Below are positions 35,692 through 52,252 of a stretch of DNA of 64,000 nt, one piece after another. The notes beneath the pieces were generated by a model. The model was not told the origin of the DNA and made no database searches. It saw only the letters and a list, made by a program, of their open reading frames with translations. The stretch is from an uncultured delta proteobacterium (GTDB lineage: Bacteria; Desulfobacterota; Desulfomonilia; UBA1062), in assembly GCA_963752595.1 (NCBI GenBank), contig CAVVYZ010000005.1:32001-96000 (forward strand), given 5' to 3'. The stretch's first letter is position 1. Each line of letters begins with the position of its first letter. The position numbers were made by a program, and so were the translations under genes.

Positions 35692-35838
35692 CAAGCACAA
35701 CAGCGCCGGATACTCGTTAATCGGGGTTAAAACCACCCCCTCATTCCCCCTTCCTTGATAAAATTCAAGCATCAGTATAAATAAATAGTGTTATATGGTA
35801 TATGATTGAAAAAAATCTGCCGGGCGGAGTATGCCTTT

Positions 35839-39134: not shown

Positions 39135-40172
39135 ATGATGAGCTATGTAGTCCTGAATAAAGACCAGCTGAACAACTTCATCGTACAGCTCTCGGCAAGG
39201 CAGAAGGTGGTTGCCGCGGTCCATAAGGGGAATAACCAGTATGCATTCGAGGAGGTGCGGTCCGGGGACCGGATCTCGATCAGGTATATACCGACCATCC
39301 TGCCTCTAAAAAAGTATTTCGTGCCCCAGTATGAGACTCTGCTCGAGTATGACGTCAGGGAAGTCCCGAAGACCAAGGTGGTCGTGGAGTACGAGCCTCT
39401 GGTGCTGTTCGGGGTCCATACCTGCGACCTGGCAGGGATCCAGTGCCTGAACATCGTCCTTTCGGACAGGCCCAAGGACCTGCACTACCTGTTCCGGAAG
39501 AACAAGCTGATCATCATGGGCCTGGAATGCAACGATTACTGCGACGGCTATGCCAGCTGCTCACTGATGGGCAACCATCTGCCCTTCGGCGGATACGACC
39601 TGTTCTTTACCGAGCTCGACGAGTCGTTCATCATCCATGTTCAGACAAAGACAGGCGATGATCTCATAGAACAAATGGATTTCATCAGGAAGGCTGAGCC
39701 GTCCCACATGAACGCCCTCGAAGAGGTCCGGGCCCGCAAGAGGGAGATCTTCAGAAACGAGGTGGATCTGGAGCGGGATGAAATACCAATTCTGTTCGAC
39801 AAAGGCTTCGACCATCCCGTGTGGAAAGAGATCGGGGAGCGCTGCCTTTCCTGCGGAAACTGCACCAATGTCTGCCCCACCTGCTACTGCTTCGATGTCA
39901 TGGACATCCCGAACCTCGATCTTACCACAGGCAGGAGGGTCAGGGTCTGGGATTCCTGCCAGAACGAGCCATTTGCCAAGATAGCCAGCGGAGAGAGCTT
40001 CCGGGCCGAGAGGAGCGACCGGCTGCGCCACCGCTTCTACCGGAAGTTCAAGTACCACAACCAGCGGTTCAATCGGTATTACTGCACCGGATGCGGGAGA
40101 TGCACCCGCACTTGTATGGCAAAGATCAATCTCAAGGAAACCATTACCGCGCTGAAGAAGGTGCCGCTATGA
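39135..40172 (+). CDS. Group 3b hydrogenase iron-sulfur (beta, AsrA-like) subunit
   Basis: FGVHTCDL, CLSCGNCTNVCPTCYCF, WDSC and CTGCGRCTRTC. Confidence 0.88.
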   Translation: MMSYVVLNKDQLNNFIVQLSARQKVVAAVHKGNNQYAFEEVRSGDRISIRYIPTILPLKKYFVPQYETLLEYDVREVPKTKVVVEYEPLVLFGVHTCDLAGIQCLNIVLSDRPKDLHYLFRKNKLIIMGLECNDYCDGYASCSLMGNHLPFGGYDLFFTELDESFIIHVQTKTGDDLIEQMDFIRKAEPSHMNALEEVRARKREIFRNEVDLERDEIPILFDKGFDHPVWKEIGERCLSCGNCTNVCPTCYCFDVMDIPNLDLTTGRRVRVWDSCQNEPFAKIASGESFRAERSDRLRHRFYRKFKYHNQRFNRYYCTGCGRCTRTCMAKINLKETITALKKVPL

Positions 40173-41011
40173 GCAGGGAGAAGGTGATCATCAGGAATTC
40201 TTCCTATGAGATAAAGCCTGCCGGGATCGTCCGGAAAAGGGTGCTCACGGACAAGGAACAGCTGTTCGAGATAGCGTTCGACAGCGGAGAGCTCCTCGAC
40301 CACGAGCCGGGCCAGTTCGTCGAGGTGTCCATCCCCGGGGCCGGAGAAGCCCCGATCTCCGTCTGCTCCTCGCCCACGCTGCAGGGGAGCTTTGAGCTCT
40401 GCGTGAGGAAGATCGGCAAGGTGACCACTGTCCTGCACCACCTGGAGGTGGGCGACGAGATCGGCATCAGGGGGCCGTTCGGCAAGGGCTTCCCGGTCAG
40501 CATCCTCGAAGGTAACGACCTCCTGATGATAGCGGGCGGCCTCGGGCTGGCCCCGCTGCGCTCGCTCATCAATTACGTCATGGACAACCGCCGCGACTTC
40601 GGTCATGTTTCCATCCTGCTGGGCTGCAATACGCCAGGGAGCATCCTGTTCGGCGACGAGGTCGAAGCCTGGGGCGAGCGCACCGATGTCAGCTTCGAGT
40701 GCACGGTGGACAGGGCCGAACCCGACTGGAAGGGGCATGTTGGGGTGATAACCACGCTGATACCGGGTATCAGCCTCGACCCCCACTATACCTTCGGCAT
40801 CATCGTCGGCCCGCCGGTGATGTACAAGTTCGTGATAAAAGAGCTGCTCGGCAAGGGCGTTCCCGAGGACCAAATCCTGGTGTCCCTGGAGAGGCACATG
40901 AAGTGCGGCCTGGGCAAGTGCGGCCACTGCCAGATCCATAATATCTACTGCTGCCAGGACGGGCCTGTCTTCCGCTACAGCCGGATAAAAAACTTGCGGG
41001 GTGCTATCTGA
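40169..41011 (+). CDS. Group 3b hydrogenase FAD/NAD(P)-binding (gamma) subunit
   Basis: PGQF..GEAPISVCS, RGPFGKGF, AGGLGLAPLRS and LERHMKCGLGKCGHC..CQDGPVF. Confidence 0.88.
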   Translation: MSREKVIIRNSSYEIKPAGIVRKRVLTDKEQLFEIAFDSGELLDHEPGQFVEVSIPGAGEAPISVCSSPTLQGSFELCVRKIGKVTTVLHHLEVGDEIGIRGPFGKGFPVSILEGNDLLMIAGGLGLAPLRSLINYVMDNRRDFGHVSILLGCNTPGSILFGDEVEAWGERTDVSFECTVDRAEPDWKGHVGVITTLIPGISLDPHYTFGIIVGPPVMYKFVIKELLGKGVPEDQILVSLERHMKCGLGKCGHCQIHNIYCCQDGPVFRYSRIKNLRGAI

Positions 41012-41764
41012 ATGGAAAAACCGAAGACCGCCTTCTTCGATTTTGCCTGCTGTGAAGGGTGCCAGCTTCAGGTGGCCAATCTGGGGGAGACTCTCCTGGA
41101 TCTGCTGGGCTCCATCGAGCTGGTCGAGTTCCGCGAGGCGATGTCCGAGAAATGGGACAAAAACTATGACATCGCCGTCATCGAGGGGAGCATTACCACC
41201 CCGCATGCCGCAGAGCGGATACGCAGGATCAGGGAGCGATCAAGGATTCTGATTGCGTACGGATCGTGCGCGACCATAGGCGGGGTAAACGGGATCAAGA
41301 ACTCGTTTGACCTGGATGAGATACGCCAATACGTCTATACCCATGATTACCGGTTCTATCCCTCGGAAAAGACCAGGGCCGTGCATCAAACGGTGCAGGT
41401 GGATTATTTCGTGACCGGCTGCCCGGTGTATCCGCCCGAGTTCCTCGAGGTGCTGAAGGCTGTCCTCCTGGGCATCCCGTACCATGTGCCGGATAAAGCC
41501 GTGTGCGTCGAATGCAAGCTCAACGAGAATATCTGCATGTACGACCGCGGGGTCACCTGCCTGGGCCCGGTAACCAGGGCCGGGTGCAACTCCTGGTGCA
41601 TAAATAACGGGAACATCTGCTACGGATGCAGGGGCATGGTTTCCAACCCCGCCGAGAACGCCATGAAGCAGGTGATCGAGATGTACCGGATCCCCCTGGA
41701 TCTGATCATCAGGAAAATGGACATGTACAACAAATGCAGAGAGATCGACGAACATGGATCATAA
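41012..41764 (+). CDS. [NiFe]-hydrogenase small (delta) subunit
   Basis: FACCEGCQ, IEGSI, GSCATIGG, GCPV, VCVECK and CLGPVTRAGC..CYGCRG. Confidence 0.9.
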   Translation: MEKPKTAFFDFACCEGCQLQVANLGETLLDLLGSIELVEFREAMSEKWDKNYDIAVIEGSITTPHAAERIRRIRERSRILIAYGSCATIGGVNGIKNSFDLDEIRQYVYTHDYRFYPSEKTRAVHQTVQVDYFVTGCPVYPPEFLEVLKAVLLGIPYHVPDKAVCVECKLNENICMYDRGVTCLGPVTRAGCNSWCINNGNICYGCRGMVSNPAENAMKQVIEMYRIPLDLIIRKMDMYNKCREIDEHGS

Positions 41765-43082
41765 GACCATAAAGGTGGATGTCGAGTACCTGACCCGTGT
41801 GGAAGGCCACGGCAACATCGTGGTGGATGTCAGGAACGGGGTGCTCGAAAAGTGTAACCTGGAGATCGTGGAAGCGCCAAGATTCTTTGAGGGCATGCTC
41901 CGTGGCCGGTCCATATTCGAGGCCCAGCATATCACCTCCAGGATCTGTGGCATCTGCGCATGCGCCCATACATTATCGTCGGTTCAGGCTGCCGAGGATG
42001 CCTTAAGCATCAGCCCGAGCCCCCAGACCGTGAAGCTGCGGGAGCTCCTCCTGGACGTGGAGATTCTCGACAGCCATATCCTCCACATCTACCTGCTGGC
42101 CCTCCCGGACCTGCTGGGCGTCAAGAGCTTTGTCCCCCTGATCGACACCCACCACAAGGTCGTCCGGAGGGCCCTGCGGATGAAGAAGACCTGCAACGAC
42201 ATCTGCGACATCCTGGTGGGCCGGCATGTCCACCCCATTTCCTGTATCGCTGGCGGCTTCACGAAGCTTCCCGCGCCGGATGACCTTGAAGAGATGCACG
42301 CTCTCTTAAAGGGGATGCGGCCAGACATGGACGCCACCGTGGACTTGGTGCTTCAGCTCTCCTTCCCCAAGTTTGAAAGGAAGACCGAGTATGTGGCGCT
42401 GGTGAACGATTCGCCGGATTATCCCCTGCTGTACGGAGATATCGGGTCATCGGACGGAAAGCGCGTGCGCAAGAAAGACTTCCGGAGTGTGACCAACGAG
42501 TTCATGGTGGAGCATTCCTCTGCAAAATTTGCAAGGTTCGCCCGGGACTCGTATGCGGTGGGCGCCCTGGCAAGGATGAATCTGAACTTCGACAAGTTGA
42601 GCCCGGGCGCGAAGATGATCGCCCATGCCGCAGGTTTCAAGCCCCCGGTACACAATCCGTACCTGAACACCGTTGCGCAGCTGATCGAGTGCGCCTATTG
42701 CCTGGAGCATGCAATCCGCATCGTGGAGCACTTCCGGGGCAGCGGGGTCGATCAGGACGAGCTGATCCTGGTTGGCCTGAACGAAAAGCATGAGATCCCG
42801 GTGCGTGCGGGGGACGGAGTCGGCGCCGTGGAGGCTCCGCGCGGCATTCTGTTCCATAATTACGCAACGGACGAACAGGGCGTTATCGTACAGGCGAACT
42901 GCATCATCCCGACCGCGCAGAACATCAACAACATCGAACACGACATGCGCAAACTCGTGCCCGAGATCCTCGACAGATCACAGGAGGAGATCACCCTGGC
43001 GCTCGAGATGCTGGTGAGGGCCTATGACCCCTGCATATCGTGCTCTGCGCACTTCCTCAATGTGCGCTTTAAAGACTCCTGA
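41754..43082 (+). CDS. [NiFe]-hydrogenase large (alpha) subunit, group 3b
   Basis: TRVEGHG, L1 SRICGICACAH, EAPRGILFH and L2 RAYDPCISCSAH, followed by a cleavable tail. Confidence 0.93.
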   Translation: MDHKTIKVDVEYLTRVEGHGNIVVDVRNGVLEKCNLEIVEAPRFFEGMLRGRSIFEAQHITSRICGICACAHTLSSVQAAEDALSISPSPQTVKLRELLLDVEILDSHILHIYLLALPDLLGVKSFVPLIDTHHKVVRRALRMKKTCNDICDILVGRHVHPISCIAGGFTKLPAPDDLEEMHALLKGMRPDMDATVDLVLQLSFPKFERKTEYVALVNDSPDYPLLYGDIGSSDGKRVRKKDFRSVTNEFMVEHSSAKFARFARDSYAVGALARMNLNFDKLSPGAKMIAHAAGFKPPVHNPYLNTVAQLIECAYCLEHAIRIVEHFRGSGVDQDELILVGLNEKHEIPVRAGDGVGAVEAPRGILFHNYATDEQGVIVQANCIIPTAQNINNIEHDMRKLVPEILDRSQEEITLALEMLVRAYDPCISCSAHFLNVRFKDS

Positions 43083-43084
43083 TC

Positions 43085-43639
43085 ATGGAGCTGTCTAACG
43101 AGGTGGAAAAGGCGCTTTCCCCATCAAAAACCGGAAAGACCATCTATGTCCTTACAGGGAATACGCTACGGGGAGATGACGGCGTCGGGCCTTACATTGC
43201 AGGCAGACTTGGGTCGGATGAATCACCCGGCAGGGAACTGCGAGATATCAAAAACAAAGGCAAGGAATATAGCGAGCTGCGAAGAATGAACCCGGCCGAG
43301 ATTCAAAAGTGCTCAGTCATTCTCGATGCAGGCGAACGGCCCGAGGTCTTCATCGACCGGATCATCCGGGAAAGACCGTCGAAGACGATCTTCATAGATG
43401 CCGCAGATTTTTATGGTGAAGCCGGCGAAGTACGTGTACTCCCTTCAAGCACCCTGGATGATTCCTCCATGAGCACCCACCGCTTTCCGCTCAGTGCCGT
43501 GGCGCGAATTATCCAAGAGGATACCAGGGCCGAAGTGATCATTGTCGGAATCCAGATCCGTACGGTTCATTTCGGCAGTCAGATGGATCGACGTATAGAA
43601 GCGAGTGCCGAGAAAATCATCGAATTGCTTCTGCCTTGA
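43085..43639 (+). CDS. Hydrogenase maturation protease (HycI-like)
   Basis: GNTLRGDDGVGP, DAGERPE, FIDAADF and STHRFPL. Confidence 0.88.
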   Translation: MELSNEVEKALSPSKTGKTIYVLTGNTLRGDDGVGPYIAGRLGSDESPGRELRDIKNKGKEYSELRRMNPAEIQKCSVILDAGERPEVFIDRIIRERPSKTIFIDAADFYGEAGEVRVLPSSTLDDSSMSTHRFPLSAVARIIQEDTRAEVIIVGIQIRTVHFGSQMDRRIEASAEKIIELLLP

Positions 43640-44180: not shown

Positions 44181-44774
44181 ATGGGGAAAAATATGAGTGG
44201 TAAAACAAAGGGTACCCGAGGGAGGGATAAGGCTACTTCACGTGATACGATTGAAGAATGCGCAATCGGGCTATTCCAATCCAAAGGGGTGGAGAAAACA
44301 TCAGTCAACGAGATCGTAAAAAAGGCAGGGATCGCCAAAGGTACTTTTTATCTGTATTTCAAGGACAAGGACGACCTTGTAGACACCGTCATCAGCCGAT
44401 ACACCAGAGAATTCCTCGACCAAGTAATCATCCCCTTCCTGAATGTACCGAAGATCATTATCCTCTCGGATGCTATCATCAATTATTTTTCTCAGAACAG
44501 AATGCTGCTCATCGAGCTTCGGAAGAACCTCCAGAGCGGCAAGCCGTACCCTTCGACACGCCGGACCATCCGGGGTTTTTCTGAGCTCATCCTCAATTAT
44601 TTAAATCAATACGAAGACTATAAGATCGACAACTGGGAACTCTATACCAAAGTCCTCCTGGGGCTCATTCTGGATGTCTGCTATAAGGCCCTGATCGAGG
44701 AGAACTTCTCTTCGATCCAAGAAGCGAAAAATATGCTGAGCGATCTCCTGAAGCGTTTCTTCAGCTGCGATTAA
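44181..44774 (+). CDS. TetR/AcrR family regulator
   Basis: LFQSKGVEKTSVNEIVKKAGIAKGTFYLYFKDKDDL. Confidence 0.92.
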   Translation: MGKNMSGKTKGTRGRDKATSRDTIEECAIGLFQSKGVEKTSVNEIVKKAGIAKGTFYLYFKDKDDLVDTVISRYTREFLDQVIIPFLNVPKIIILSDAIINYFSQNRMLLIELRKNLQSGKPYPSTRRTIRGFSELILNYLNQYEDYKIDNWELYTKVLLGLILDVCYKALIEENFSSIQEAKNMLSDLLKRFFSCD

Positions 44775-44782
44775 ATTTTGCC

Positions 44783-44888
44783 TTGCCTTTTATGACCAGC
44801 GGTCATATTATTGCTTGAACGACCCTGGATCACTTTCCAGAGAACAATGAAGGCGGGTTTTTACTGCATTTAAATTGACCGGAGGTCA
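44783..44888 (+). promoter_or_regulatory. Sigma70-like promoter with two TGACC-N3-GGTCA operators
   Basis: TTGCCT (44783)-17 bp-TATTAT (44806). TATGACCAGCGGTCATA at 44791-44807 and TGACCGGAGGTCA at 44876-44888. Confidence 0.7.
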
Positions 44889-44908: not shown

Positions 44909-46876
44909 ATGAAAGCAACGTGGGATATCCCGGAAGTGATGCTGGATAATCGAAACGATTTCCTGAACGATTTCTATCAGCGCTTTACCCTCCGCAAGGC
45001 GCGGCAGCCCCTGAAAATGACCGAAGAGTTGACCAAGGATTATCTGTTCCCCACATTCTACGGTGATGTGTCCTGCGCTATGGCAGTGTTCATGTGCTCC
45101 TATGATAAAGCTGCAGCCTTGGTGAGCGAGCAGCTGAGCCCTCAGATCGTTCCCGTGAGAATGCCCAGGGGGCGTGCCCTGGCAGCCTTCTCCTGCTACG
45201 AGTATAAAAAGGTCATGGGGGTACGGCCGTACAACGAGATTGCCATTGCTATCCCGATCATGGTCGATCCGGACTGCAATATCCCTGTCCTTCCCATGGT
45301 CACCAATTCCTTCAGCCGGTTCGGATACTATATTGCCGGGATGCCGGTTACCTCGAAAGAAAACACGATCCGGGGCAGGAAGATCTGGGGCCTGCCCAAG
45401 GTGACTCAGGATATCGATATCTATCACGAAGCAGGGAATTGCATAGTAAAGGCAATGGATGAGAGCGGAGATGTGTACCTGTCGCTGCGCATCCCCATGC
45501 AGGGCACGCCTACCGAGTTCGATGTCACTTCCTACCTGTATACGCAGCTTGGGGGAAAGTTGCTCCAGAACCGGACAGACTTCAAAGCTTCTTTCAATGT
45601 AAAGAAAAACATGCAGCTTCTCTTGAAAAAGAACGAGAGGCCGGACCATCCTTACATCGAGCTGGGCAGCACCTCCTTTGCCCCGCTGCTCAAAAGGCTC
45701 GAGATAGAAGAAACTCCCTTCCAGACACGCTATGCCGAGCATATGTCATCCTGCTTCGACCTACCCAACGAGCAGGCGCCCAGCTGGGCTCAGACCATTC
45801 ATGTAAGCGGCTATACACTGGATGATGAAGCCGGCATGAAGCTTGAATCCAAAGATATGAAGATCGCTTTTTTCGGGGCCGGTTCCATCGGCGCTTCTGT
45901 AGGCGGCTGGGTCGCTCCCTTCCACGAAGAGACCTACTTCATCGATCAGGGGAAAATTCTCGATGCACTGAAATCGAGCGGTATAACGCTCTATCAGGGG
46001 GATAAGAAAAAAGAGACGACAGCGCATGTTCCGGTCAAGATAATTGAAGACATCTCGGATCTGAAGTCCATGGATGTAGTCGTTGTCGGTGTGAAGAACT
46101 TCAGCCTCGAATCGGTTGCCGGGCTGATCAAAGCCAATTCGAAAGAAGATGTGATCATCGTATCCATGGCCAACGGGATAGATAATCAGTCGATCCTGCC
46201 CAAGTACTTTTCTAAGGTGATCTACTGCATCGTCAGCTACAATGCATGGATGGACCATCCGGTAACCGTGGGATACCAGAAGCGGGGGCCGCTCGTCCTG
46301 GGAACGCCCGACAACAGCCTGCTGACCGAAATGAACACCATTGCCGAGATCTTCAGCCAAGGCGTGGAGACCGTGGTTACCGATCATTTCCAGGATGCAG
46401 TACACTCGAAGATCGTGGTGAACCTTACCAACCCCGTGACAACTCTGGTGGGCCATGGGTTCAGGGAAATCTCGGATTTCGATACCTTTCAGAAAATCCT
46501 CAGCAATACGCTGTACGAAGGAGTACGGATCGTTCATGCTGCCGGGTTCAAGGAGTGCAAGCTTGGCGGCATGCCTCCGTGGTTCCTCCTGAAGGCGTCC
46601 GCCCTTCTCCCGAGGTCTCTCACCAGGCCATTGTTCAGAAAGAATGTGGCAAAGATGGTCATGTCCAGCATGAGCCAGGATATCATTCAGCGCGGGGGAA
46701 CTGACTCCGAGCTCGATTCACTGACCGGGTATATCCTTAAGCTTGCCGGGCAGAACAGAATAAAAGCGCCGTATAACGAAACCATCTACGAGCTCGGGAA
46801 AGAGCTCTTCAGCAAGCCGGGCTTTTCCCCTATGGATGTGCGGGATGTATGGGCAAAGATACAGCAGAAGCTGTGA
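44909..46876 (+). CDS. Fusion of an acetoacetate decarboxylase-superfamily domain and a ketopantoate reductase (PanE/ApbA)-like domain
   Basis: N-terminal part: PYNEIAI..MPVT..GRKIWGLPK. C-terminal part: FFGAGSIG, MANGI, SKIVVNL and SSMSQDI..SELDSLTG..APYNE. Confidence 0.82.
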   Translation: MKATWDIPEVMLDNRNDFLNDFYQRFTLRKARQPLKMTEELTKDYLFPTFYGDVSCAMAVFMCSYDKAAALVSEQLSPQIVPVRMPRGRALAAFSCYEYKKVMGVRPYNEIAIAIPIMVDPDCNIPVLPMVTNSFSRFGYYIAGMPVTSKENTIRGRKIWGLPKVTQDIDIYHEAGNCIVKAMDESGDVYLSLRIPMQGTPTEFDVTSYLYTQLGGKLLQNRTDFKASFNVKKNMQLLLKKNERPDHPYIELGSTSFAPLLKRLEIEETPFQTRYAEHMSSCFDLPNEQAPSWAQTIHVSGYTLDDEAGMKLESKDMKIAFFGAGSIGASVGGWVAPFHEETYFIDQGKILDALKSSGITLYQGDKKKETTAHVPVKIIEDISDLKSMDVVVVGVKNFSLESVAGLIKANSKEDVIIVSMANGIDNQSILPKYFSKVIYCIVSYNAWMDHPVTVGYQKRGPLVLGTPDNSLLTEMNTIAEIFSQGVETVVTDHFQDAVHSKIVVNLTNPVTTLVGHGFREISDFDTFQKILSNTLYEGVRIVHAAGFKECKLGGMPPWFLLKASALLPRSLTRPLFRKNVAKMVMSSMSQDIIQRGGTDSELDSLTGYILKLAGQNRIKAPYNETIYELGKELFSKPGFSPMDVRDVWAKIQQKL

Positions 46877-47093: not shown

Positions 47094-47870
47094 TCAATCG
47101 TCCATGAGGTTTCTCGGCCCGTAGAGGATGGCCTCCATCAGTGGCATGTACTGGAAGAAGAGCGGCTTTTCGCTCAGTTCCAAATCTTTAAGCTGCAGGG
47201 CGATGCTGTGTTTGTCGCCGAGGCTGAGCTGCGCTGCGCTTCCGCTCATGCTTTTGCCGAACTCGAGGGGATTCATGTAAATGTTCGCTGCCAGCGGAAC
47301 GCCGTCTTTCACTGAATAGGTCTTGAACCTGTTCACCTTCTCCTGGGATGTTTTCAGCTTTTTGCCTTTGAGCGTGAGGATCTTTTCCCCGCCTTCGGAA
47401 AGCGTGCAGGCCGGCATGGAGCCTTCATGGGAGAAAGCGATGTCTGCGAGGAACTTGGGATATCCGTACATCTCGACACCGCCTTTGCGTGCCCGTTCGG
47501 TGGTTACGGGAAGCTGCCAGACATATGCCGAAAAGTATCTCCGCGCCATCATACTCAACACGGTGAGACCCGGTATGGCTTTTTTGCGGAAAGTTATGGG
47601 GAAAGAGATGGAAAATTCGTTATAGGGGTCGATGTCTGTCCTGCGGTACTCGAAGGCCGTAAACGCGACCAGCGCCCTGCCTTTCCAGACCTCAACCGGG
47701 TGCATGTCAGGCAGGGGAAGATGTCTCCGGACTTTCTCGACAGGGGCGGTGAAGATAGCCGTCATGGCCGTGTTGTCATAGTAGAATACGGGGAGCTTGC
47801 CCTCGAGAGACAGATCCTTTGTCATCATATCCCACTGAACAACGCCTTTGAAAAAATCTCCTTTTTTCAT
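47094..47870 (-). CDS. Acetoacetate decarboxylase-superfamily protein
   Basis: AFEYRRTDIDPYNEFSI and LPVTTERARKGGVEMYGYPKFLA. Confidence 0.85.
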   Translation of the reverse strand: MKKGDFFKGVVQWDMMTKDLSLEGKLPVFYYDNTAMTAIFTAPVEKVRRHLPLPDMHPVEVWKGRALVAFTAFEYRRTDIDPYNEFSISFPITFRKKAIPGLTVLSMMARRYFSAYVWQLPVTTERARKGGVEMYGYPKFLADIAFSHEGSMPACTLSEGGEKILTLKGKKLKTSQEKVNRFKTYSVKDGVPLAANIYMNPLEFGKSMSGSAAQLSLGDKHSIALQLKDLELSEKPLFFQYMPLMEAILYGPRNLMDD

Positions 47871-47951
47871 ACATCCTCCTCGATTATTTTCATGGATACT
47901 GTTCTTTTTTGAGCTTCCCGCTACAGGCATGGCCTGCTCAGGTTTTTCCTC

Positions 47952-48794
47952 TCAATCCTTCTTCTCTGCGTAAGTCCTCGCAACATACCTGCTGAACAGG
48001 CCGCTTAAGCTGACTGCGGTTACGGGGAAGAACCTCGTGAGCAGGTCAAGGACCTTTGCATCGGTGCCTATCAGGATGCGCCTCCTGTTCCGCTTGATCC
48101 CTGCAATGATGATCTTTGCAGCATCATCCGCGGTTGTCCTGAAAAGCTCGTCCTCGTAGAGCCTCTGGGCCTTCTCCTTGGACAGCGAGTACATTGCCCG
48201 GTTCACGCGGGCGTTCTTTGCGATGTTGGTCTTGATCCCTCCTGGATGCACGCAACTCACCCGGATATTCGTACCGTGCATCTCCTGGGCAAGGGTTTCC
48301 GTGTATCCCTTGACCGCAAACTTTGCAGAGCAGTAGGGGCCGTTATTGGGATTGGGCATGATCCCGTTGATGCTGGAGACGTTGACGATGTGGCCTTCCG
48401 GCTGCTTCTTCAAGTAGGGAAGGAATGCCATGGTGCCGTGCACGACGCCCCAGAAGTCGATGCCCATGAGCCACTCGAAGTCTTCCAGCGGAACGGTTTC
48501 CAGGAAATCGCCCAGGGCGACTCCTGCATTGTTTATGACCATATCTATGCCGCCGTGGTTCCGGGCAGCCTCTTCGGCAAAGCCGAATACCTGGTCTCGC
48601 TTCGACACATCCACGATATGGGTCGAAACATTCACCCCTGCGCCGACGAGCGCGGTTGTCTCCTGCAGCCCTGCCCCGTCGATATCCGCAAGGGCAAGGT
48701 TGCATCCTTCGTCTGCAAGATTGACGGCAAGCATCCTGCCGATACCCGAAGCAGCACCTGTGACCGCCGCAGTCTTATTTTTCAAAATCTTCAT
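47952..48794 (-). CDS. Short-chain dehydrogenase/reductase
   Basis: TGAASGIG, NNAG, YCSAK and HPGGIKTNI. Confidence 0.92.
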   Translation of the reverse strand: MKILKNKTAAVTGAASGIGRMLAVNLADEGCNLALADIDGAGLQETTALVGAGVNVSTHIVDVSKRDQVFGFAEEAARNHGGIDMVINNAGVALGDFLETVPLEDFEWLMGIDFWGVVHGTMAFLPYLKKQPEGHIVNVSSINGIMPNPNNGPYCSAKFAVKGYTETLAQEMHGTNIRVSCVHPGGIKTNIAKNARVNRAMYSLSKEKAQRLYEDELFRTTADDAAKIIIAGIKRNRRRILIGTDAKVLDLLTRFFPVTAVSLSGLFSRYVARTYAEKKD

Positions 48795-48818
48795 GATCGT
48801 CTTTTCCTCCGGTGTGTA

Positions 48819-49958
48819 CTACCTGCCGCTTCCGGCAAGGCCTGCAAGATCCCGTATCAAGTCGAGCTTCTTCATGGGTGAGCTGCCGAGCAGTGCCTGC
48901 ACCTGCCGGGCATCACGGAAGCGCTTCTCCTGTCCGTAGTCCTTCATATAGCCATTGCCTCCCAGAACCTGCACACCGTCGGTGACTGCCTCGCAGGCCA
49001 GCTCATGAACATGGAGACCGGCCGCGATACAGTGAGAGCCCCATGCTTTCCCTTCCTGCTCAAGGGCCAGGCAGGCCTGGGCAACGCACATCTCAGCCAC
49101 GTCGGCCTTGATTGCCATGCCGGCAAGCAGCATGCTCACCTCGCTCCACTGAATGATCTCGCGTCCGCCCTGGGAGCGCTCTTTCGAGTATGCCAGCGCT
49201 TCGCCCAGCGAGCCCTTCATGATGGCTGAGTTCATGGCTGCCGCAGCCACGTGCATCTTCATGGAGGCCTGCTTGAAATAGTCCCTGCCTTTGCCCTTTT
49301 CCCCGATGAGCTGTGTCTCAACTCCCTGGAGGGTGACATCTATGGCAGGGCATGCGTGCATCCCAAGGCTGAAGATGGGATCGCTCTTCGAAAGTCCTTT
49401 GTCCGAGAGATCGACCAGAAAAAATGAATAGGAGCCTCCCGTGCCGGTGCGGGCCGGGATAATCGCCTTCTGCGCCAGGCCTCCCAGCACGAGGAATTCG
49501 AGCTTGCCGGTCAACGCATAGCCTTTGCCCGACTTGGTAGCGCTGGGGATTTTATCCGTGTGGGAGGGGTCGGTGTAGGACGGGAACGCGACCAGGAATT
49601 CCCGTGCGGTTGACGCCTTGGGAAAGATGTCTCCTGCGAGCCCGTCTGCCTTTGCCGCAAGCAGGATCTCCTGAGCCAGGGCATTGGTGAATACTATCCC
49701 GCCCAGAGAGCTGTCGGCCCGACAGATGTTGTCGAGGATGACGCACAGTGTGCTTATGCTCCCGCCGATGCCGCCGAGCCCCTCGGGAAGCATGACTCCA
49801 AGGAACCCCACTTCGTAGGCCTTGTTCAGGACGTCTTCGAAGAAATCACCAAAGGGGTAGCGGTCGTTTTCCTCGGTCTTTTTTGCGAGCTCTCTGGCCG
49901 CAAAGGACTGCGCCAGCTCTTCAAAGGGTTTCAGATCGCTTTTGAATGAGGTCAGCAT
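48819..49958 (-). CDS. Acyl-CoA dehydrogenase-like protein with degenerate catalytic motifs
   Basis: ACAD fold motifs (PEGLGG, ALAYSKERSQGG, VQVLGGNGYMKDYGQEKRFRDA), but no TEPxxGSD and no YEG. Confidence 0.82.
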   Translation of the reverse strand: MLTSFKSDLKPFEELAQSFAARELAKKTEENDRYPFGDFFEDVLNKAYEVGFLGVMLPEGLGGIGGSISTLCVILDNICRADSSLGGIVFTNALAQEILLAAKADGLAGDIFPKASTAREFLVAFPSYTDPSHTDKIPSATKSGKGYALTGKLEFLVLGGLAQKAIIPARTGTGGSYSFFLVDLSDKGLSKSDPIFSLGMHACPAIDVTLQGVETQLIGEKGKGRDYFKQASMKMHVAAAAMNSAIMKGSLGEALAYSKERSQGGREIIQWSEVSMLLAGMAIKADVAEMCVAQACLALEQEGKAWGSHCIAAGLHVHELACEAVTDGVQVLGGNGYMKDYGQEKRFRDARQVQALLGSSPMKKLDLIRDLAGLAGSGR

Positions 49959-49976
49959 TGGTTCCTCCTTGTATGA

Positions 49977-51506
49977 TTAGTCTTCAAAGACGTTTGCCTG
50001 CGGCACCTGGGGTGCGATAAGGCACTTGAAAGTATTGAGCCGGTTGAGCTGGTTGGTGCCCTCGTAGATCTGCAGAAGCTTGATGTCGCGGAGCATCTTC
50101 TCTACCCCGGCATCCTGACGCAACCCCGTAGAGCCCATGAGTTCGATGGCCATCTGGCAGTTGTGTACGCCGATGTCCGTGCCGGCGAATTTCGCCAGAG
50201 AAGCCCAGCCCGAGCAGCACAGCTGGTCCTGAGGCTTTGCCCAGTCATAGTAGAGCTTCCGCATGAACTTTCCGGAAGATTCCGTATCAAGGGTCGGCGC
50301 GACCACTTTATCGAAGTAGGCCTGGGGCATGAGACGGAAGTAATAGTAGAGGGGCTTGAGCTGGAGGAGCCTGTACATGCCGCGAAGGCTGTTGGCGTAG
50401 TTCGCTTCCACATAGGCGAGCCTTCCCAGTGCGACGTTCTTGTACATCTCGGCAAGCAGGCATTGCACCCACTCGCTTTTTACGAGGAGCTTACCGTTTA
50501 CCGTAGTCGTCGATGCATAGTTCAGAGCTGCCTCAAAGGCTCCCCGTGCGACGCCGACCCCGAAGGCGCATACGCCGGGACGCGTTGCCGAAACCACGTA
50601 GTCGATGTAGCGCTGGGAGAGGTCCTTCATGGGCTTTTTCGAGATCTTCTTCATCAGATCCGCACTGAAGAGCACCTGGTCGTCCGGGATGAAGCAGTCT
50701 TCGAAGATGAGCACGCTGGCAGGGCATACCCGCTGGCCCATCTTGTTTTCATGGGTACCGAAGGAAAAGCCCTTGGTGCCTGTCTTTACCATCATGCCCA
50801 CGCCCGACACAGAAGGCTTCTTGAGGTCGGAATATGCAAGGAGTACGGTCCAGGTCGACACGTGCCCCATGGAGATGAATACCTTGGTGCCGTTGACGAT
50901 ATAGCCGCCATTGACCTTCTTTGCATGGCAGCTGACCTTGCCCTTGTCTACGAGATCCACCTCTTCCACATCGGTTCCCGCACCGGGCTCGGTGGTGGCA
51001 AGGGCAATGAGACAGGGCTTGCCGGTCTTCTCACCTTCCACGACCTCGCTGATGACCTTTTTTGCCAGGGCCGGGTTGGCCGAAGCGATCAGCCCTGCCA
51101 CGCCGAGGTAGTGGACGCCGATGACGTTCATGATCCCGACACAGACAGAACTGACTTCTTCGGCAAAATAAGACATGGAAGGCATGCTGCTCCCCTTGCC
51201 TCCGAACATCCTGGGTATCCACTTGGTGTAGAAGCCCCATTTATTGGCGATGTCGACGAGCTCCAGGGGCATGTAATCAGGGTCTTCGTGGGTCTTCCGG
51301 TCGAGTTCGAGGGCCCTGGGCCTTGCCACTTCTTCATTGAACTTGCGGGCAAGGGCAATGACCTCCTGTATCTCCTTGATCATGTGCTTCGGCATGCGCG
51401 GGGCATACGGCAGGCTCAAATGGATGTCCTCGAACTTCGGAAAACGGGACAGTCTGGCCGATACTTCAGATCTGGACAGCATATTACCCTCCTCTTTGTC
51501 GGTCAT
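49977..51506 (-). CDS. Acyl-CoA dehydrogenase (extended)
   Basis: ATTEPGAGTDV, NGTKVFISMG, ENKMGQR and EKMLRDIKLLQIYEGTNQLNR. Confidence 0.88.
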   Translation of the reverse strand: MTDKEEGNMLSRSEVSARLSRFPKFEDIHLSLPYAPRMPKHMIKEIQEVIALARKFNEEVARPRALELDRKTHEDPDYMPLELVDIANKWGFYTKWIPRMFGGKGSSMPSMSYFAEEVSSVCVGIMNVIGVHYLGVAGLIASANPALAKKVISEVVEGEKTGKPCLIALATTEPGAGTDVEEVDLVDKGKVSCHAKKVNGGYIVNGTKVFISMGHVSTWTVLLAYSDLKKPSVSGVGMMVKTGTKGFSFGTHENKMGQRVCPASVLIFEDCFIPDDQVLFSADLMKKISKKPMKDLSQRYIDYVVSATRPGVCAFGVGVARGAFEAALNYASTTTVNGKLLVKSEWVQCLLAEMYKNVALGRLAYVEANYANSLRGMYRLLQLKPLYYYFRLMPQAYFDKVVAPTLDTESSGKFMRKLYYDWAKPQDQLCCSGWASLAKFAGTDIGVHNCQMAIELMGSTGLRQDAGVEKMLRDIKLLQIYEGTNQLNRLNTFKCLIAPQVPQANVFED

Positions 51507-51577
51507 TTCCTAAAAACGGCGGTGAGGCCGGTTGTAAACAAATATTTCAATATTTTAAGGCGTTGTCTTCATCCCCG

Positions 51578-52252
51578 TCATCTCCCGCCATCCGGGAGCA
51601 TGGGAACGATCATGTCGCCGATTTCGGCCCTGCCCATATCCGTCAGATACATGGAGACCATGGAATGTGTAAGGGCCATGAGATTGTCGATGGCTTCGTC
51701 CCGGGTAAACCGGCGGTCCACCAGATAGCTTAAGGCCACATGCAGGCACATGCCTATGATAATGTGCCCCAAGAGCGCGCCGTTTACGTCTTTCAGGAAG
51801 CCCAATTCTTCCCACTTGCGGAAATCTTCTTCGATATCGGATGCGAAGCCCTGAAAAAATTTCCAGAGGACGATATCCTGCTCTTCATCCACACCGAAGC
51901 CGCCGCGCAGGATCAGGAGGACCTGATCCGGGTTCGCCTCCACATAGTCGAAGAAAGCGGCATACGCCGGTCTCCACTGCTGAATGCGTTCGCGGGCGTC
52001 GCCGGGCTTCCTGGTCCGGCTCAGATCTTTGAGCTTTGCCCTTAAGCTTTCGAGCGTCTCGCGGGTGATCTGCTCGAACAGGTCCCGCTTATCCTTGAAA
52101 TGAGTGTAGATGCTTCCCGTGGATATGCCTGCAGCCTTGACGATATCCGCAATCCGGGCCTTGTGATACCCCTTTTCGCTGAATACCTTGATGGCAGCCT
52201 GGAATATCATCTCCCGTGTCTCGGCCTTGCGCGCCTCCAATGGATTCGACAT
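51578..52252 (-). CDS. TetR/AcrR family regulator
   Basis: AAIKVFSEKGYHKARIADIVKAAGISTGSIYTHFKDK. Confidence 0.92.
   Translation of the reverse strand: MSNPLEARKAETREMIFQAAIKVFSEKGYHKARIADIVKAAGISTGSIYTHFKDKRDLFEQITRETLESLRAKLKDLSRTRKPGDARERIQQWRPAYAAFFDYVEANPDQVLLILRGGFGVDEEQDIVLWKFFQGFASDIEEDFRKWEELGFLKDVNGALLGHIIIGMCLHVALSYLVDRRFTRDEAIDNLMALTHSMVSMYLTDMGRAEIGDMIVPMLPDGGR

Follow-up and report, generated by a model that had tools for sequence, protein, structure and literature searches.

A fusion of an acetoacetate decarboxylase-fold and a PanE-fold domain in an uncultured delta proteobacterium: a candidate 2-oxo-acid aldolase coupled to a 2-hydroxyacid dehydrogenase

Proteins of the acetoacetate decarboxylase (ADC) fold are widespread, only few of them have to our knowledge been assayed, and the decarboxylase label mostly fits them poorly. 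Here we describe such a protein, encoded in a 64-kb window (the whole stretch of DNA that was analysed), in which the ADC-fold domain is fused to a domain of the PanE/ApbA fold. The best structural matches of the ADC half are acetoacetate decarboxylases (C. acetobutylicum 3BH2, C. violaceum 3BGT; Z 21.3–22.5, 12–13% identity), whose K115, E76 and Y74 have equivalents in it, whereas equivalents of R29, E61 and K116 are gone and no solventogenesis genes lie near the fusion. MppR, Sbi00515 and Swit_4259 (4JM3, 4ZBT, 5UPB) share the fold (Z 18.6–19.9), the Schiff-base lysine and an arginine before a conserved glycine at 11–16% identity; the present subfamily differs from them by a 50-aa N-terminal extension and a PanE-like partner. 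E. coli PanE and the PanE-fold D-mandelate dehydrogenase (3WFI, 8WL1; 15–24% identity) have the fold and the full catalytic set in common with the PanE half, and D-mandelate dehydrogenase also an Asp at the end of strand β2. By contrast, the PanE half has no equivalents of PanE N194 and N241 and carries an extra helical insert.

Route I non-phosphorylative sugar-acid pathways (e.g., that of the L-KDF aldolase FucH), whose aldolases we take to belong to the DHDPS/NAL or HpcH families, have a make-up similar to the genes found in genome G079 and at loci L004 and L278. The accessible parts of the descriptions list a dehydrogenase, a lactonase, a dehydratase and an aldolase, with protein-family mosaicism (PMC6336799, PMC11199699). 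Compared with that scheme, the aldolase slot would here be filled by an ADC fold, and a PanE-fold dehydrogenase would be added at most loci of the cassette. An engineered cascade of aldolases and E. coli ketopantoate reductase (KPR) makes 2,4-dihydroxy acids with the pair of reactions proposed here, via 4-hydroxy-2-oxo acids, but it is artificial, runs in the synthetic direction and employs unrelated aldolases (PMC10127515, in its accessible part). Our searches of a largely open literature found no paper on an architecture of ADC plus ketopantoate/2-dehydropantoate 2-reductase, nor on ADC-like Schiff-base or retro-aldol chemistry.

The features of the locus are the following:
44181..44774, + strand: predicted TetR-family repressor of a subfamily dedicated to the ADC-PanE cassette (Pfam TetR_N; orthologue positions)
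44783..44811, + strand: σ70-like promoter candidate (-35 TTGCCT, 17-nt spacer, -10 TATTAT; 9/12 match)
44793..44805: operator 1, palindrome TGACC-N3-GGTCA, between the -35 and -10 boxes of the promoter candidate
44876..44888: operator 2, TGACC-N3-GGTCA, just 5' of the ribosome-binding site
44909..46876, + strand: fusion ORF of 655 aa (uninterrupted reading frame, Pfam domains, homologues)
44909..45778, + strand: ADC-fold domain, aa 1–290, predicted Schiff-base 2-oxo-acid aldolase or hydratase-aldolase
45398..45400, + strand: codon of K164, predicted Schiff-base lysine (K115 of C. acetobutylicum ADC)
45779..45853, + strand: linker, about aa 291–315 (low model confidence)
45854..46873, + strand: PanE/ApbA-fold domain, aa 316–655, predicted NAD(H)-linked (R)-2-hydroxyacid/2-oxoacid oxidoreductase

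The two-domain ORF is real and conserved, and not an artefact. It is uninterrupted, as had been claimed in an earlier, sequence-only reading of this DNA, and its three Pfam matches (ADC, aa 34–188, 48.9 bits; ApbA, 319–467, 69 bits; ApbA_C, 494–631, 55.8 bits) all exceed the curated cut-offs; TIGR00745 scored 151 bits (cut-off 141.35). The ADC half contains G156-R-K-I-W160-G-L-P-K164, and the PanE half G323-A-G325-S-I-G328, K501-I-V-V-N505 and S587-M-S-Q-D591. The Schiff-base lysine, GxGxxG and KxxxN motifs named in that reading are present, while its 'SM.QD..E' is loose in spacing because E601 lies ten residues past D591. All three domains recur in 35 of 54 proteins retrieved by our search (47–99% identity), of which P0001 is near-identical to the query. 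In public sequencing runs, a 260-nt contig (45632–45891) crosses the junction with 2 differences and 0 gaps, a support that comes from assembled contigs and not from raw reads; a contig of a relative covers the whole gene, its sole listed gap inside the ORF being in frame and 3 nt long. A stop or indel at the junction, which the sequence-only reading had named as grounds for abandoning the fusion, was not seen, nor are the homologues always unlinked. The linker varies in length and sequence among the other fusions, the stretch from the last ADC motif to the Rossmann motif measuring 17 to 53 aa across 11 fused proteins. The full-length structure model (pTM 0.56, from a 20-row alignment) says nothing firm on domain packing.

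The halves belong together well beyond this genome. Related loci numbered 113 (L032, L114 and L115 were left out, and no ADC was found in L024), of which 39 are fusions, 46 keep the halves as neighbouring genes with the order unchanged, 20 carry only ADC and 8 were too short to classify. Fused or adjacent halves therefore account for 85 of 105 informative loci in several phyla, with ADC preceding PanE at every paired locus; L054, counted among the split loci, may be an assembly error. In one Spirochaetota order, ADC is directly upstream in 15 of 21 genomes with the PanE subfamily. A tree built on the 94 rows, out of 160, that remained when filtered at 92% identity indicates that fusion arose at least twice, the monophyly test on fusions having been run with 20 solo rows omitted and after inspection of the first tree. 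Several lineages retain only the ADC half, L029 and L049 being losses within the fused clade. The cassette is patchy and accessory: it is present in 7 of 12 genomes of the window's genus, and the ADC subfamily in 5 of 401 sampled genomes of its phylum. A search without positive control found no PanE subfamily member in 301 genomes of the phylum of L031, and an Atlas search with homologue P0085 returned generic ADC clusters only. The sequence-only reading had proposed a bifunctional enzyme that channels a keto intermediate. Two catalytic domains that plausibly are both intact do belong together, and a shared keto-acid intermediate is plausible; the idea of channelling sits badly with relatives that are mostly split, with the variable spacer and with the lineages that have the ADC half alone.

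The pair also has a regulator that travels with it. TetR orthologues are directly upstream of the ADC gene in 27 of 28 cases (two sets of 122 genomes). Among loci L001–L112 with at least 250 nt upstream (10 were too short), TetR and the exact operator occurred together at 29, either one without the other at none, and neither at 71. The two sites before the fusion ORF are the only exact TGACC-N3-GGTCA sites in the window, and in genomes G509 and G804 the two preceding the cassette are the only ones genome-wide. Regulon searches gave near-chance numbers, with 4 further exact operators in this genome (6 in total, about 4.4 expected) and 0–3 extra ones in each of ten other genomes, and showed no conservation. 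Promoter-like sites are no more frequent in the region than in shuffles (4 versus 4.2), so the promoter candidate is notable only for its overlap with operator 1.

The ADC domain was modelled with high confidence (pLDDT 95.8), and the model has the predicted β-cone fold of the ADC-like superfamily (PF06314). The VIA structure comparison gave Z 22.5 to 3BGT (rmsd 2.3, 215 aligned), Z 19.9 to MppR and Z 18.7 to Sbi00515, the next unrelated fold scoring 5.8. Near-invariant in 94 aligned rows are Y51, Y108, E110, N152, R155, W160, K164 and R274; K164, E110 and Y108 are present in 94/94 and align with K115, E76 and Y74 of C. acetobutylicum ADC. Arg29, Glu61 and Lys116, which we take to be functional residues of the latter enzyme, correspond to V54, S95 and V165 in a mapping made at about 12% identity with positions 54 and 165 placed by eye. 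An hhalign comparison of the ADC half (A2) with C. acetobutylicum ADC reached no significance (probability 0.4) and gives local register only. Given the replacements, the ADC half is probably not a genuine acetoacetate decarboxylase. R155, invariant in 94/94 rows just before the conserved Gly, occupies the position of Sbi00515 R114, presumably a carboxylate binder; at this position the genome's three further ADC paralogues carry Gly or Trp. PDB titles list MppR and Sbi00515 in complexes with pyruvate, and the ADC half may work like these aldolase-dehydratases. We do not file it with them since Sbi00515 Gln118, presumably the partner of the carboxylate site, is replaced by the invariant W160. 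In these comparisons they resemble it by fold only; our ADC family profile matched 0 PDB chains by sequence, and the broader profile A4 matched true ADCs and 3CMB only, neither MppR nor Sbi00515.

The PanE half belongs to the PanE/ApbA family (PF02558 plus PF08546, TIGR00745 and the catalytic Lys/Asn/Ser/Glu set). It contains D346, K396, N422, K501, N505, N508, S587 and E601, and equivalents of K72, N98, K176, N180, N184, S244 and E256 of E. coli PanE are all kept. According to the accessible part of PMC10127515, five of the PanE residues (N98, K176, N184 and S244 are named) hold the 2-oxo acid for (R)-specific reduction, while N194 and N241 bind the 4-OH of 4-hydroxy-2-oxo acids. The latter two are replaced by F518 and V584, and an extra hydrophobic helical segment lies around aa 552–580. 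An invariant Asp (D346; 38/38) closes strand β2 as in the NADH-using D-mandelate dehydrogenase 3WFI, which suggests NAD rather than NADP as cofactor; this is not certain as an Arg follows the Asp in many relatives according to the profile. The cofactor site was read from HMMER alignments, the MAFFT placement of E. coli R31 being unreliable. The PanE half forms a discrete subfamily, with full-length matches dropping from about 211 to 146 bits, and scores far below the cut-offs of all PRK equivalog models (closest in NCBIfam PRK08229, 125 versus 371). The loss of Asn194/Asn241, the NAD-type Asp and the genome's own panB and PanE together make a true ketopantoate reductase unlikely. The Asn test is not absolute because the other PanE of this genome likewise lacks both (Y and H instead). 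A 'malate dehydrogenase' match (9S3K, E 0.53) disappeared with a profile search and was dropped.

Taking these data together we propose, with about an even chance of being right, that the protein couples a retro-aldolase for 2-oxo acids to an NAD-linked dehydrogenase for (R)-2-hydroxy acids. The PanE-like half would convert an (R)-2-hydroxy acid and NAD+ to the 2-oxo acid, which the ADC-like half would cleave via a Lys164 Schiff base to pyruvate (or another 2-oxo acid) and an aldehyde. A 4-hydroxy-2-oxo acid (2-keto-3-deoxy acid) or a dehydrated 2-oxo-3-enoate would be the likely intermediate. Within this proposal we lean somewhat towards the dehydrogenase acting first; reduction of the 2-oxo-acid product (pyruvate, glyoxylate) after cleavage is a real but less favoured order. 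Retention of K164, E110 and Y108, loss of R29, E61 and K116 and an R155 as in Sbi00515 argue for the aldolase, and the full PanE catalytic set plus the β2 Asp for the dehydrogenase. The patchy, accessory distribution and the operators confined to the cassette in G509 and G804 also count in its favour.

Further support comes from genomes in which a DHDPS-type pyruvate aldolase is found in the equivalent setting, next to either TetR and operator or dehydratase and amidohydrolase; there are few of them. Genome G079 has the same TetR (57% identity) and no ADC-PanE match. Its TetR gene lies between an SDR-IlvD-MFS-SDR-FGGY operon and a divergent DHDPS/YagE-like aldolase gene followed by an amidohydrolase gene, with operators at both promoters; among 28 TetR loci it alone has an exact operator on that upstream side. 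The gene order at L004 is fusion-SAF-UxaA-amidohydrolase, and at L278, in another phylum, amidohydrolase-SAF-like-UxaA-DHDPS aldolase-MFS. No close copy of the L278-type aldolase was found in the genome of L004, and the ADC profile, which did match in the 401-genome sample, had 0 matches in that of L278. L015 also has UxaA after the fusion; it is of the same genus as L004, and the UxaA proteins are 96% identical. With the UxaA-type dehydratase and amidohydrolase following the gene at L004, a sugar acid would be a further source of the intermediate proposed above. The DHDPS aldolase gene itself adjoins genes of 2-hydroxyacid redox enzymes, for a D-2-hydroxyacid dehydrogenase at L246 and of LUD/LutABC type at L248, and in L273 a lactate-racemase domain is about 4 kb away. 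These informative contexts, with dehydratase, amidohydrolase and aldolase, point to sugar-acid-type catabolism. The argument for displacement draws on few loci, with one genome behind the TetR case and one genus behind that of fusion plus UxaA.

Several findings count against our proposal. The ADC half is structurally slightly closer to true ADCs (Z 21–22.5) than to MppR/Sbi00515, Gln118 is replaced by W160, and ADC occurs without a PanE gene at 20 of the 105 informative loci. ADC-bearing genomes are not enriched in UxaA (11/17 versus 32/52) or amidohydrolase (13/17 versus 35/52), both of which are common in the family. ADC and DHDPS aldolase are not significantly exclusive (overlap 1/17, expected 2.6, p=0.25, with kin that are not independent) and occur together in G078, G781, G1159 and the genome of L015. 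G074 and G075 have the full TetR-ADC-PanE set, and neither UxaA nor amidohydrolase was found in them; most cassette loci are without upstream Route I genes, and other neighbours are heterogeneous. In the window no dehydratase or lactonase gene lies near the fusion, UxaA and amidohydrolase genes being located elsewhere in this genome. It is tempting to speculate, as a possible but doubtful extension, that the ADC fold is a non-homologous 2-keto-3-deoxy-acid aldolase which replaces the DHDPS type in anaerobic bacteria and, with the NAD-linked PanE-fold dehydrogenase, oxidises and cleaves 2,4-dihydroxy (3-deoxy-aldonic) acids. If true, this would be a self-contained, TetR-gated two-step catabolic route in several phyla, fused more than once, and the natural reverse of the engineered aldolase/KPR cascade. 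F518 and V584 count against a polyhydroxy substrate since a hydrophobic side chain fits better.

An unlikely alternative is a metal-free β-decarboxylating dehydrogenase, whose PanE half would oxidise a (2R)-hydroxy dicarboxylate (of the D-malate, 3-alkylmalate or isocitrate type) and whose ADC half would decarboxylate the 2-oxo-3-carboxy acid via a Schiff base. Both halves would be used and no other gene would be needed, which matches a self-contained cassette; a second carboxylate could be held by R25 and R274, two further basic residues that are invariant, and the best structural matches of the ADC half are decarboxylase-annotated ADCs. However, R29, E61 and K116 of the proven decarboxylase have no equivalents, the displacing protein in G079 and L278 is an aldolase family member, and no dicarboxylate-related neighbour was found to recur at related loci.

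The chemistry of our proposal could also serve another substrate class, a long-chain or aromatic 2-hydroxy-3-enoate or 2,4-dihydroxy acid that would be oxidised, hydrated and cleaved to pyruvate and a hydrophobic aldehyde. F518/V584 and the hydrophobic insert would suit such a substrate; 14 loci have AMP-binding ligases in their flanking regions, thioesterases and GH5 hydrolases are each found beside the genes of two lineages, and the distant PanE-like relative P0439 is fused to an α/β hydrolase. Lipid catabolism had been put forward in the sequence-only reading, but the acyl-CoA dehydrogenase pair beside the fusion is on the opposite strand, comes with a TetR of its own and lacks homologues (E<1e-15) at all 111 related loci, so that lipid neighbours are not conserved. 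Moreover, the AMP-binding neighbours represent several subfamilies (mostly 28–46% identical mutually) in genomes rich in such genes, and no transporter or aldehyde dehydrogenase recurs at related loci. We therefore regard this substrate class as improbable.

The cassette might instead be anabolic or detoxifying, with the ADC half condensing pyruvate and an aldehyde and the PanE half forming a (2R)-2,4-dihydroxy acid with NADH, as an aldehyde or electron sink or in small-product synthesis. Reduction is the favoured direction for PanE-type enzymes, and the gene order is always ADC then PanE. The aldolase–ketopantoate reductase cascade does work in vitro in the synthetic direction (PMC10127515, accessible part). 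The associated genes are nevertheless of catabolic types (dehydratases, amidohydrolase, MFS transporters) and no biosynthetic cluster or exporter recurs at related loci, which leaves this option quite improbable.

We give very little credence to pantoate metabolism, i.e., a PanB-independent ketopantoate aldolase with a ketopantoate reductase that would together supply CoA synthesis or, run backwards, degrade pantoate. Aldol addition of a 2-oxo acid to formaldehyde yields ketopantoate, the PanE half exceeds the TIGR00745 subfamily cut-off, SSF- or BASS-family transporters are encoded downstream in single lineages, and PanE-only paralogues adjoin Ntn amidases; but the genome has panB and a better PanE (247 versus 151 bits), every PanE equivalog cut-off is missed, N194 and N241 are lost and the distribution is patchy. 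Equally remote is the view that the halves are co-regulated for different steps or substrates, fusion being a by-product of tight adjacency: ADC-only lineages (including L029 and L049) and PanE-only paralogues that pair with an IclR and a ThDP enzyme or UxaA would fit it, whereas pairing in a fixed order across phyla, the Spirochaetota order and repeated fusion do not.

The cassette connects a single discrete subfamily of ADC with a single discrete one of PanE, and both with a dedicated predicted repressor and a sharply defined operator. Its replacements in other genomes can now be seen, and its function is directly testable. If the coupled aldolase–dehydrogenase proposal holds, it would add a new fold to the keto-deoxy-acid aldolases and give a poorly understood fold a new job, the breakdown of sugar-acid-like compounds by anaerobic bacteria, as a catabolic step in uncultured anaerobes of sediment, peat and digester type. 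It would also provide a naturally occurring aldolase and reductase with which chiral 2,4-dihydroxy acids could be made, and the misannotation of the fusions in public records as '2-dehydropantoate 2-reductase' would be corrected. As to the ThDP enzyme beside PanE-only paralogues, an assignment as glyoxylate carboligase was dropped because AHAS scores higher (209 versus 149 bits).

The fusion gene consists of a single uninterrupted frame of 655 aa (44909–46876, + strand) and contains the motifs named by the sequence-only reading. Its three Pfam domains all score above cut-off (ADC, aa 34–188; ApbA, aa 319–467; ApbA_C, aa 494–631). It passes TIGR00745 narrowly (151 against a cut-off of 141.35) and falls far below the cut-off of every PanE equivalog model. 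A whole-length search found all three domains in 35 of 54 proteins, and a near-identical 260-nt contig covers the junction without a gap. A contig from a relative also covers the whole gene, in frame. Several housekeeping genes on contigs C1, C2 and C12 of the same assembly seem frameshifted (split tblastn matches), and apparent breaks in individual genes at other places in it call for caution; the fusion itself is confirmed by its relatives.

The nearest relatives of the fusion protein (86–88% identity) are labelled as Desulfomonilia or UBA1062 bacteria, and remoter ones as Syntrophobacteraceae, Spirochaetota, Desulfobacteraceae, Myxococcales or Acidobacteriota. There are hundreds of shorter relatives (691 and 496 matches, not all close), and a clear gap in scores sets the PanE half apart as a discrete subfamily. 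An ADC half is encoded at 113 of the 114 loci examined: 39 are fused, 46 are split with the PanE gene next downstream in the same orientation, and 20 are ADC-only, lacking a PanE gene over 1.5 kb or more; 8 are too short to judge. These counts contain near-copies; filtered at 92%, the rows divide into 24 fused, 50 split and 20 solo. In the tree, the window's fusion belongs to a clade with good support that holds 16 fused rows and 2 solo ones, and the remaining 8 fused rows are placed elsewhere, among split forms. ADC-only genes of about 310 aa (L029, L049, P0055–P0058) are nested within the fused clade; that of L029 retains part of the linker followed by a stop, and its PanE half has therefore been lost secondarily. 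The pair is a conserved two-gene operon whose PanE half is sometimes lost and which was fused at least twice, because a quick-tree test run without the solo rows rejects monophyly of all fused rows (p-AU 0.0035) and the linkers differ (spacers of 17–53 aa). The cassette is accessory: 7 of the 12 genomes in the genus and 17 of the 52 in the family carry the ADC half. Distant ADC relatives (22–28%) occur on plasmids of cultured Acinetobacter and Moraxella (L172, L173) and Shinella (L174:4613-8218); the Shinella protein keeps an arginine at the position of R155, and its gene is flanked by one for a flavin oxidoreductase and one for an aldehyde dehydrogenase, a setting that fits an aldehyde-releasing reaction.

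The upstream TetR gene is the sole recurring neighbour of the cassette (29 loci). Two palindromes separate it from the fusion gene:
44793, operator palindrome TGACC-N3-GGTCA, inside promoter-like spacing
44876, operator palindrome TGACC-N3-GGTCA
The TetR regulon looks local, to judge from the sites: TetR and operator occur together at 29 loci and singly at none (neither at 71, too short at 10), the TetR gene is single-copy and directly precedes the ADC gene in 27 of 28 copies, and in two Spirochaetota genomes the cassette's two operators are the only exact sites genome-wide. Two further exact operators with the window's spacers occur in AT-rich intergenic DNA of its own genome (G000:C15:157658 and G000:C29:1818), one between acyl-CoA ligase-like and thioredoxin-like genes and the other amid insertion sequences.

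The modelled ADC half (pLDDT 95.8) matches 3BGT (Z 22.5), 3BH2 (21.3), MppR (19.9), and Sbi00515 and Swit_4259 (both 18.7); its strong structural matches are confined to the ADC superfamily, the next Z being 5.8. In an alignment of low identity, made partly by eye, K115, E76 and Y74 of the C. acetobutylicum decarboxylase correspond to K164, E110 and Y108, whereas R29, E61 and K116 are replaced by V54, S95 and V165. R155 is invariant (94 of 94 rows) and coincides with R114 of Sbi00515, whose Q118 is W160 in the fusion; in Sbi00515, R114 and Q118 bind the carboxylate of the Schiff base formed with pyruvate. These residues suggest 2-oxo-acid binding by the ADC half, and aldolase or hydratase-aldolase activity as likelier for it than acetoacetate decarboxylation. 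According to PMC7820114, MppR is an aldolase acting on pyruvate, and an aldolase role has been proposed for two archaeal ADC-like proteins.

The PanE half, which has an added hydrophobic helical segment, retains the equivalents of E. coli PanE K72, N98, K176, N180, N184, S244 and E256. N194 and N241 are replaced by F518 and V584. According to PMC10127515, N194 and N241 serve the 4-OH, the 2-oxo-acid end falls to N98, K176, N184 and S244, and the product is (R). D346 ends strand β2 in 38 of 38 aligned rows. D-mandelate dehydrogenase, which uses NADH, likewise has an aspartate there; in 3HWR and 5HWS the residue is alanine or glycine, followed by arginine. We infer an NAD(H)-linked (R)-2-hydroxyacid oxidoreductase, distinct from the pantothenate enzyme. 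A more distant PanE-like domain is fused behind an α/β hydrolase (Hydrolase_4) in P0439 (612 aa).

We regard the chances as even that the fusion oxidizes an (R)-2-hydroxy acid and then cleaves the product by a Schiff-base retro-aldol reaction, every catalytic step being deduced. The PanE half would transfer hydride from the (R)-2-hydroxy acid to NAD+ at K501/N422/E601. The resulting 2-oxo acid would form a Schiff base at K164 with its carboxylate held by R155, and E110 would assist retro-aldol cleavage, preceded by water addition if the substrate were a 2-oxo-3-enoate; aldehyde and pyruvate would be released. A β-decarboxylating dehydrogenase is an unlikely alternative to this oxidation and cleavage, and a synthetic or sink direction of the fusion appears improbable.

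In a few genomes other genes take the place of the cassette. The genome G079 has the TetR gene and no match to the fusion. Two one-mismatch operators follow TetR, then genes for an SDR, an IlvD-family dehydratase, an MFS transporter, a second SDR and an FGGY kinase. On its other side, TetR is separated by an exact operator from genes for a divergent DHDPS/YagE-like aldolase and an amidohydrolase; no exact operator lies upstream of TetR in the other 27 of the 28 TetR loci. A further exact operator precedes another gene pair:
L234:1140-4085 (G079), KARI-like and IlvD pair behind its own exact operator (perfect extended site for this TetR), in a sugar-acid-type cluster
The KARI-like enzyme is possibly a catabolic oxidoisomerase rather than one of amino-acid synthesis. 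Across two phyla, this DHDPS aldolase subfamily is paired with an IlvD-type or a split UxaA-type dehydratase, and the same UxaA subfamily follows the fusion at L004 and L015 and precedes IclR-PanE at L153–L155. The order at L004 is fusion, SAF, UxaA, amidohydrolase, and at L278 amidohydrolase, SAF-like, UxaA, DHDPS aldolase, MFS; no close copy of the DHDPS aldolase was found in the genome of L004 and no ADC-profile match in that of L278. Since the DHDPS aldolase has as direct neighbours a D-2-hydroxyacid dehydrogenase in L246 and LUD-type genes for lactate utilisation in L248, and lies near a lactate-racemase domain in L273, aldolase plus 2-hydroxyacid redox enzyme is a recurring pairing. In composition these gene sets correspond to Route I non-phosphorylative sugar-acid catabolism as given in PMC6336799 and PMC11199699, the contexts being few and partly from close kin. 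Neither UxaA (11 of 17 ADC-bearing against 32 of 52 family genomes) nor the amidohydrolase (13 of 17 against 35 of 52) is enriched with ADC, and mutual exclusion of ADC and DHDPS aldolase is not significant (overlap 1 of 17, expected 2.6, p 0.25). Four genomes carry both, and G074 and G075, which possess the full cassette, lack UxaA and the amidohydrolase.

Loss of the 4-OH-binding asparagines is easier to reconcile with a hydrophobic substrate than with a sugar acid. The same oxidation and cleavage of lipid-like substrates is a minor possibility in our estimate. Lipid catabolism had been proposed for the fusion, whose convergent neighbours are:
47094–51506, SDR, paired acyl-CoA dehydrogenases and a second ADC-like gene, with their own TetR
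No homologue of these acyl-CoA dehydrogenases occurs at any of 111 related loci; the lipid inference is thus unsupported, because this neighbour does not travel with the fusion gene. A Pfam scan of 87 neighbours, mostly immediate ones, found no common theme. The three other ADC-family genes of the window's genome (window 47094-52252, − strand; L125:4114-10322; L126:6087-10368) each lie beside an acyl-CoA dehydrogenase pair, two of them also beside an SDR; they lack the R155 equivalent and appear to form an ADC subfamily of their own, related to lipids. In two lineages the split pair is flanked by GH5 hydrolases (L069:4389-5957, L100:4349-5914), that of L069 carrying a GH5 C-terminal domain, as in endoglycoceramidases.

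PanE-only paralogues occur in operons of IclR, PanE and a ThDP enzyme, the last again a C–C-cleaving or C–C-forming partner for a 2-oxo acid. In such operons (L118, L119:5109-8820, L120:5762-9388) the PanE-like protein is ~51% identical to the fusion domain, the AHAS-like ThDP enzyme is below all NCBIfam cut-offs, and ADC is absent. In two lineages (L153–L155, L122) PanE-only paralogues adjoin Ntn (penicillin-amidase-family) hydrolases just 28% identical to each other. The window's genome has an orthologue (63%) of the IclR fronting PanE-only operons (L167, G000:C2:188033-191243); its gene is transcribed divergently from genes resembling those of 2-hydroxyacyl-CoA dehydratase and adjoins a LeuB-like gene.

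A role in pantoate metabolism is highly improbable; the window's genome carries panB and a separate PanE that scores higher than the fusion's PanE half. We think it just as implausible that the halves catalyse unrelated, co-regulated steps. Both folds are already known, and public Pfam annotation already shows the fused architecture, though the name given to it is misleading; no paper on the ADC–PanE pairing was found in the literature searched, which was of incomplete coverage. The cassette is a regulated module of two enzymes, uncharacterised and fused more than once, that offers a testable hypothesis.

Elsewhere in the window are the following genes, assigned from sequence except for the protease:
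35806–38628, MalT-like regulator of 940 aa, upstream of the hydrogenase-like genes
39135–43639, + strand, four hydrogenase-like genes and a maturation protease
43085–43639, + strand, the maturation protease (Pfam HycI)
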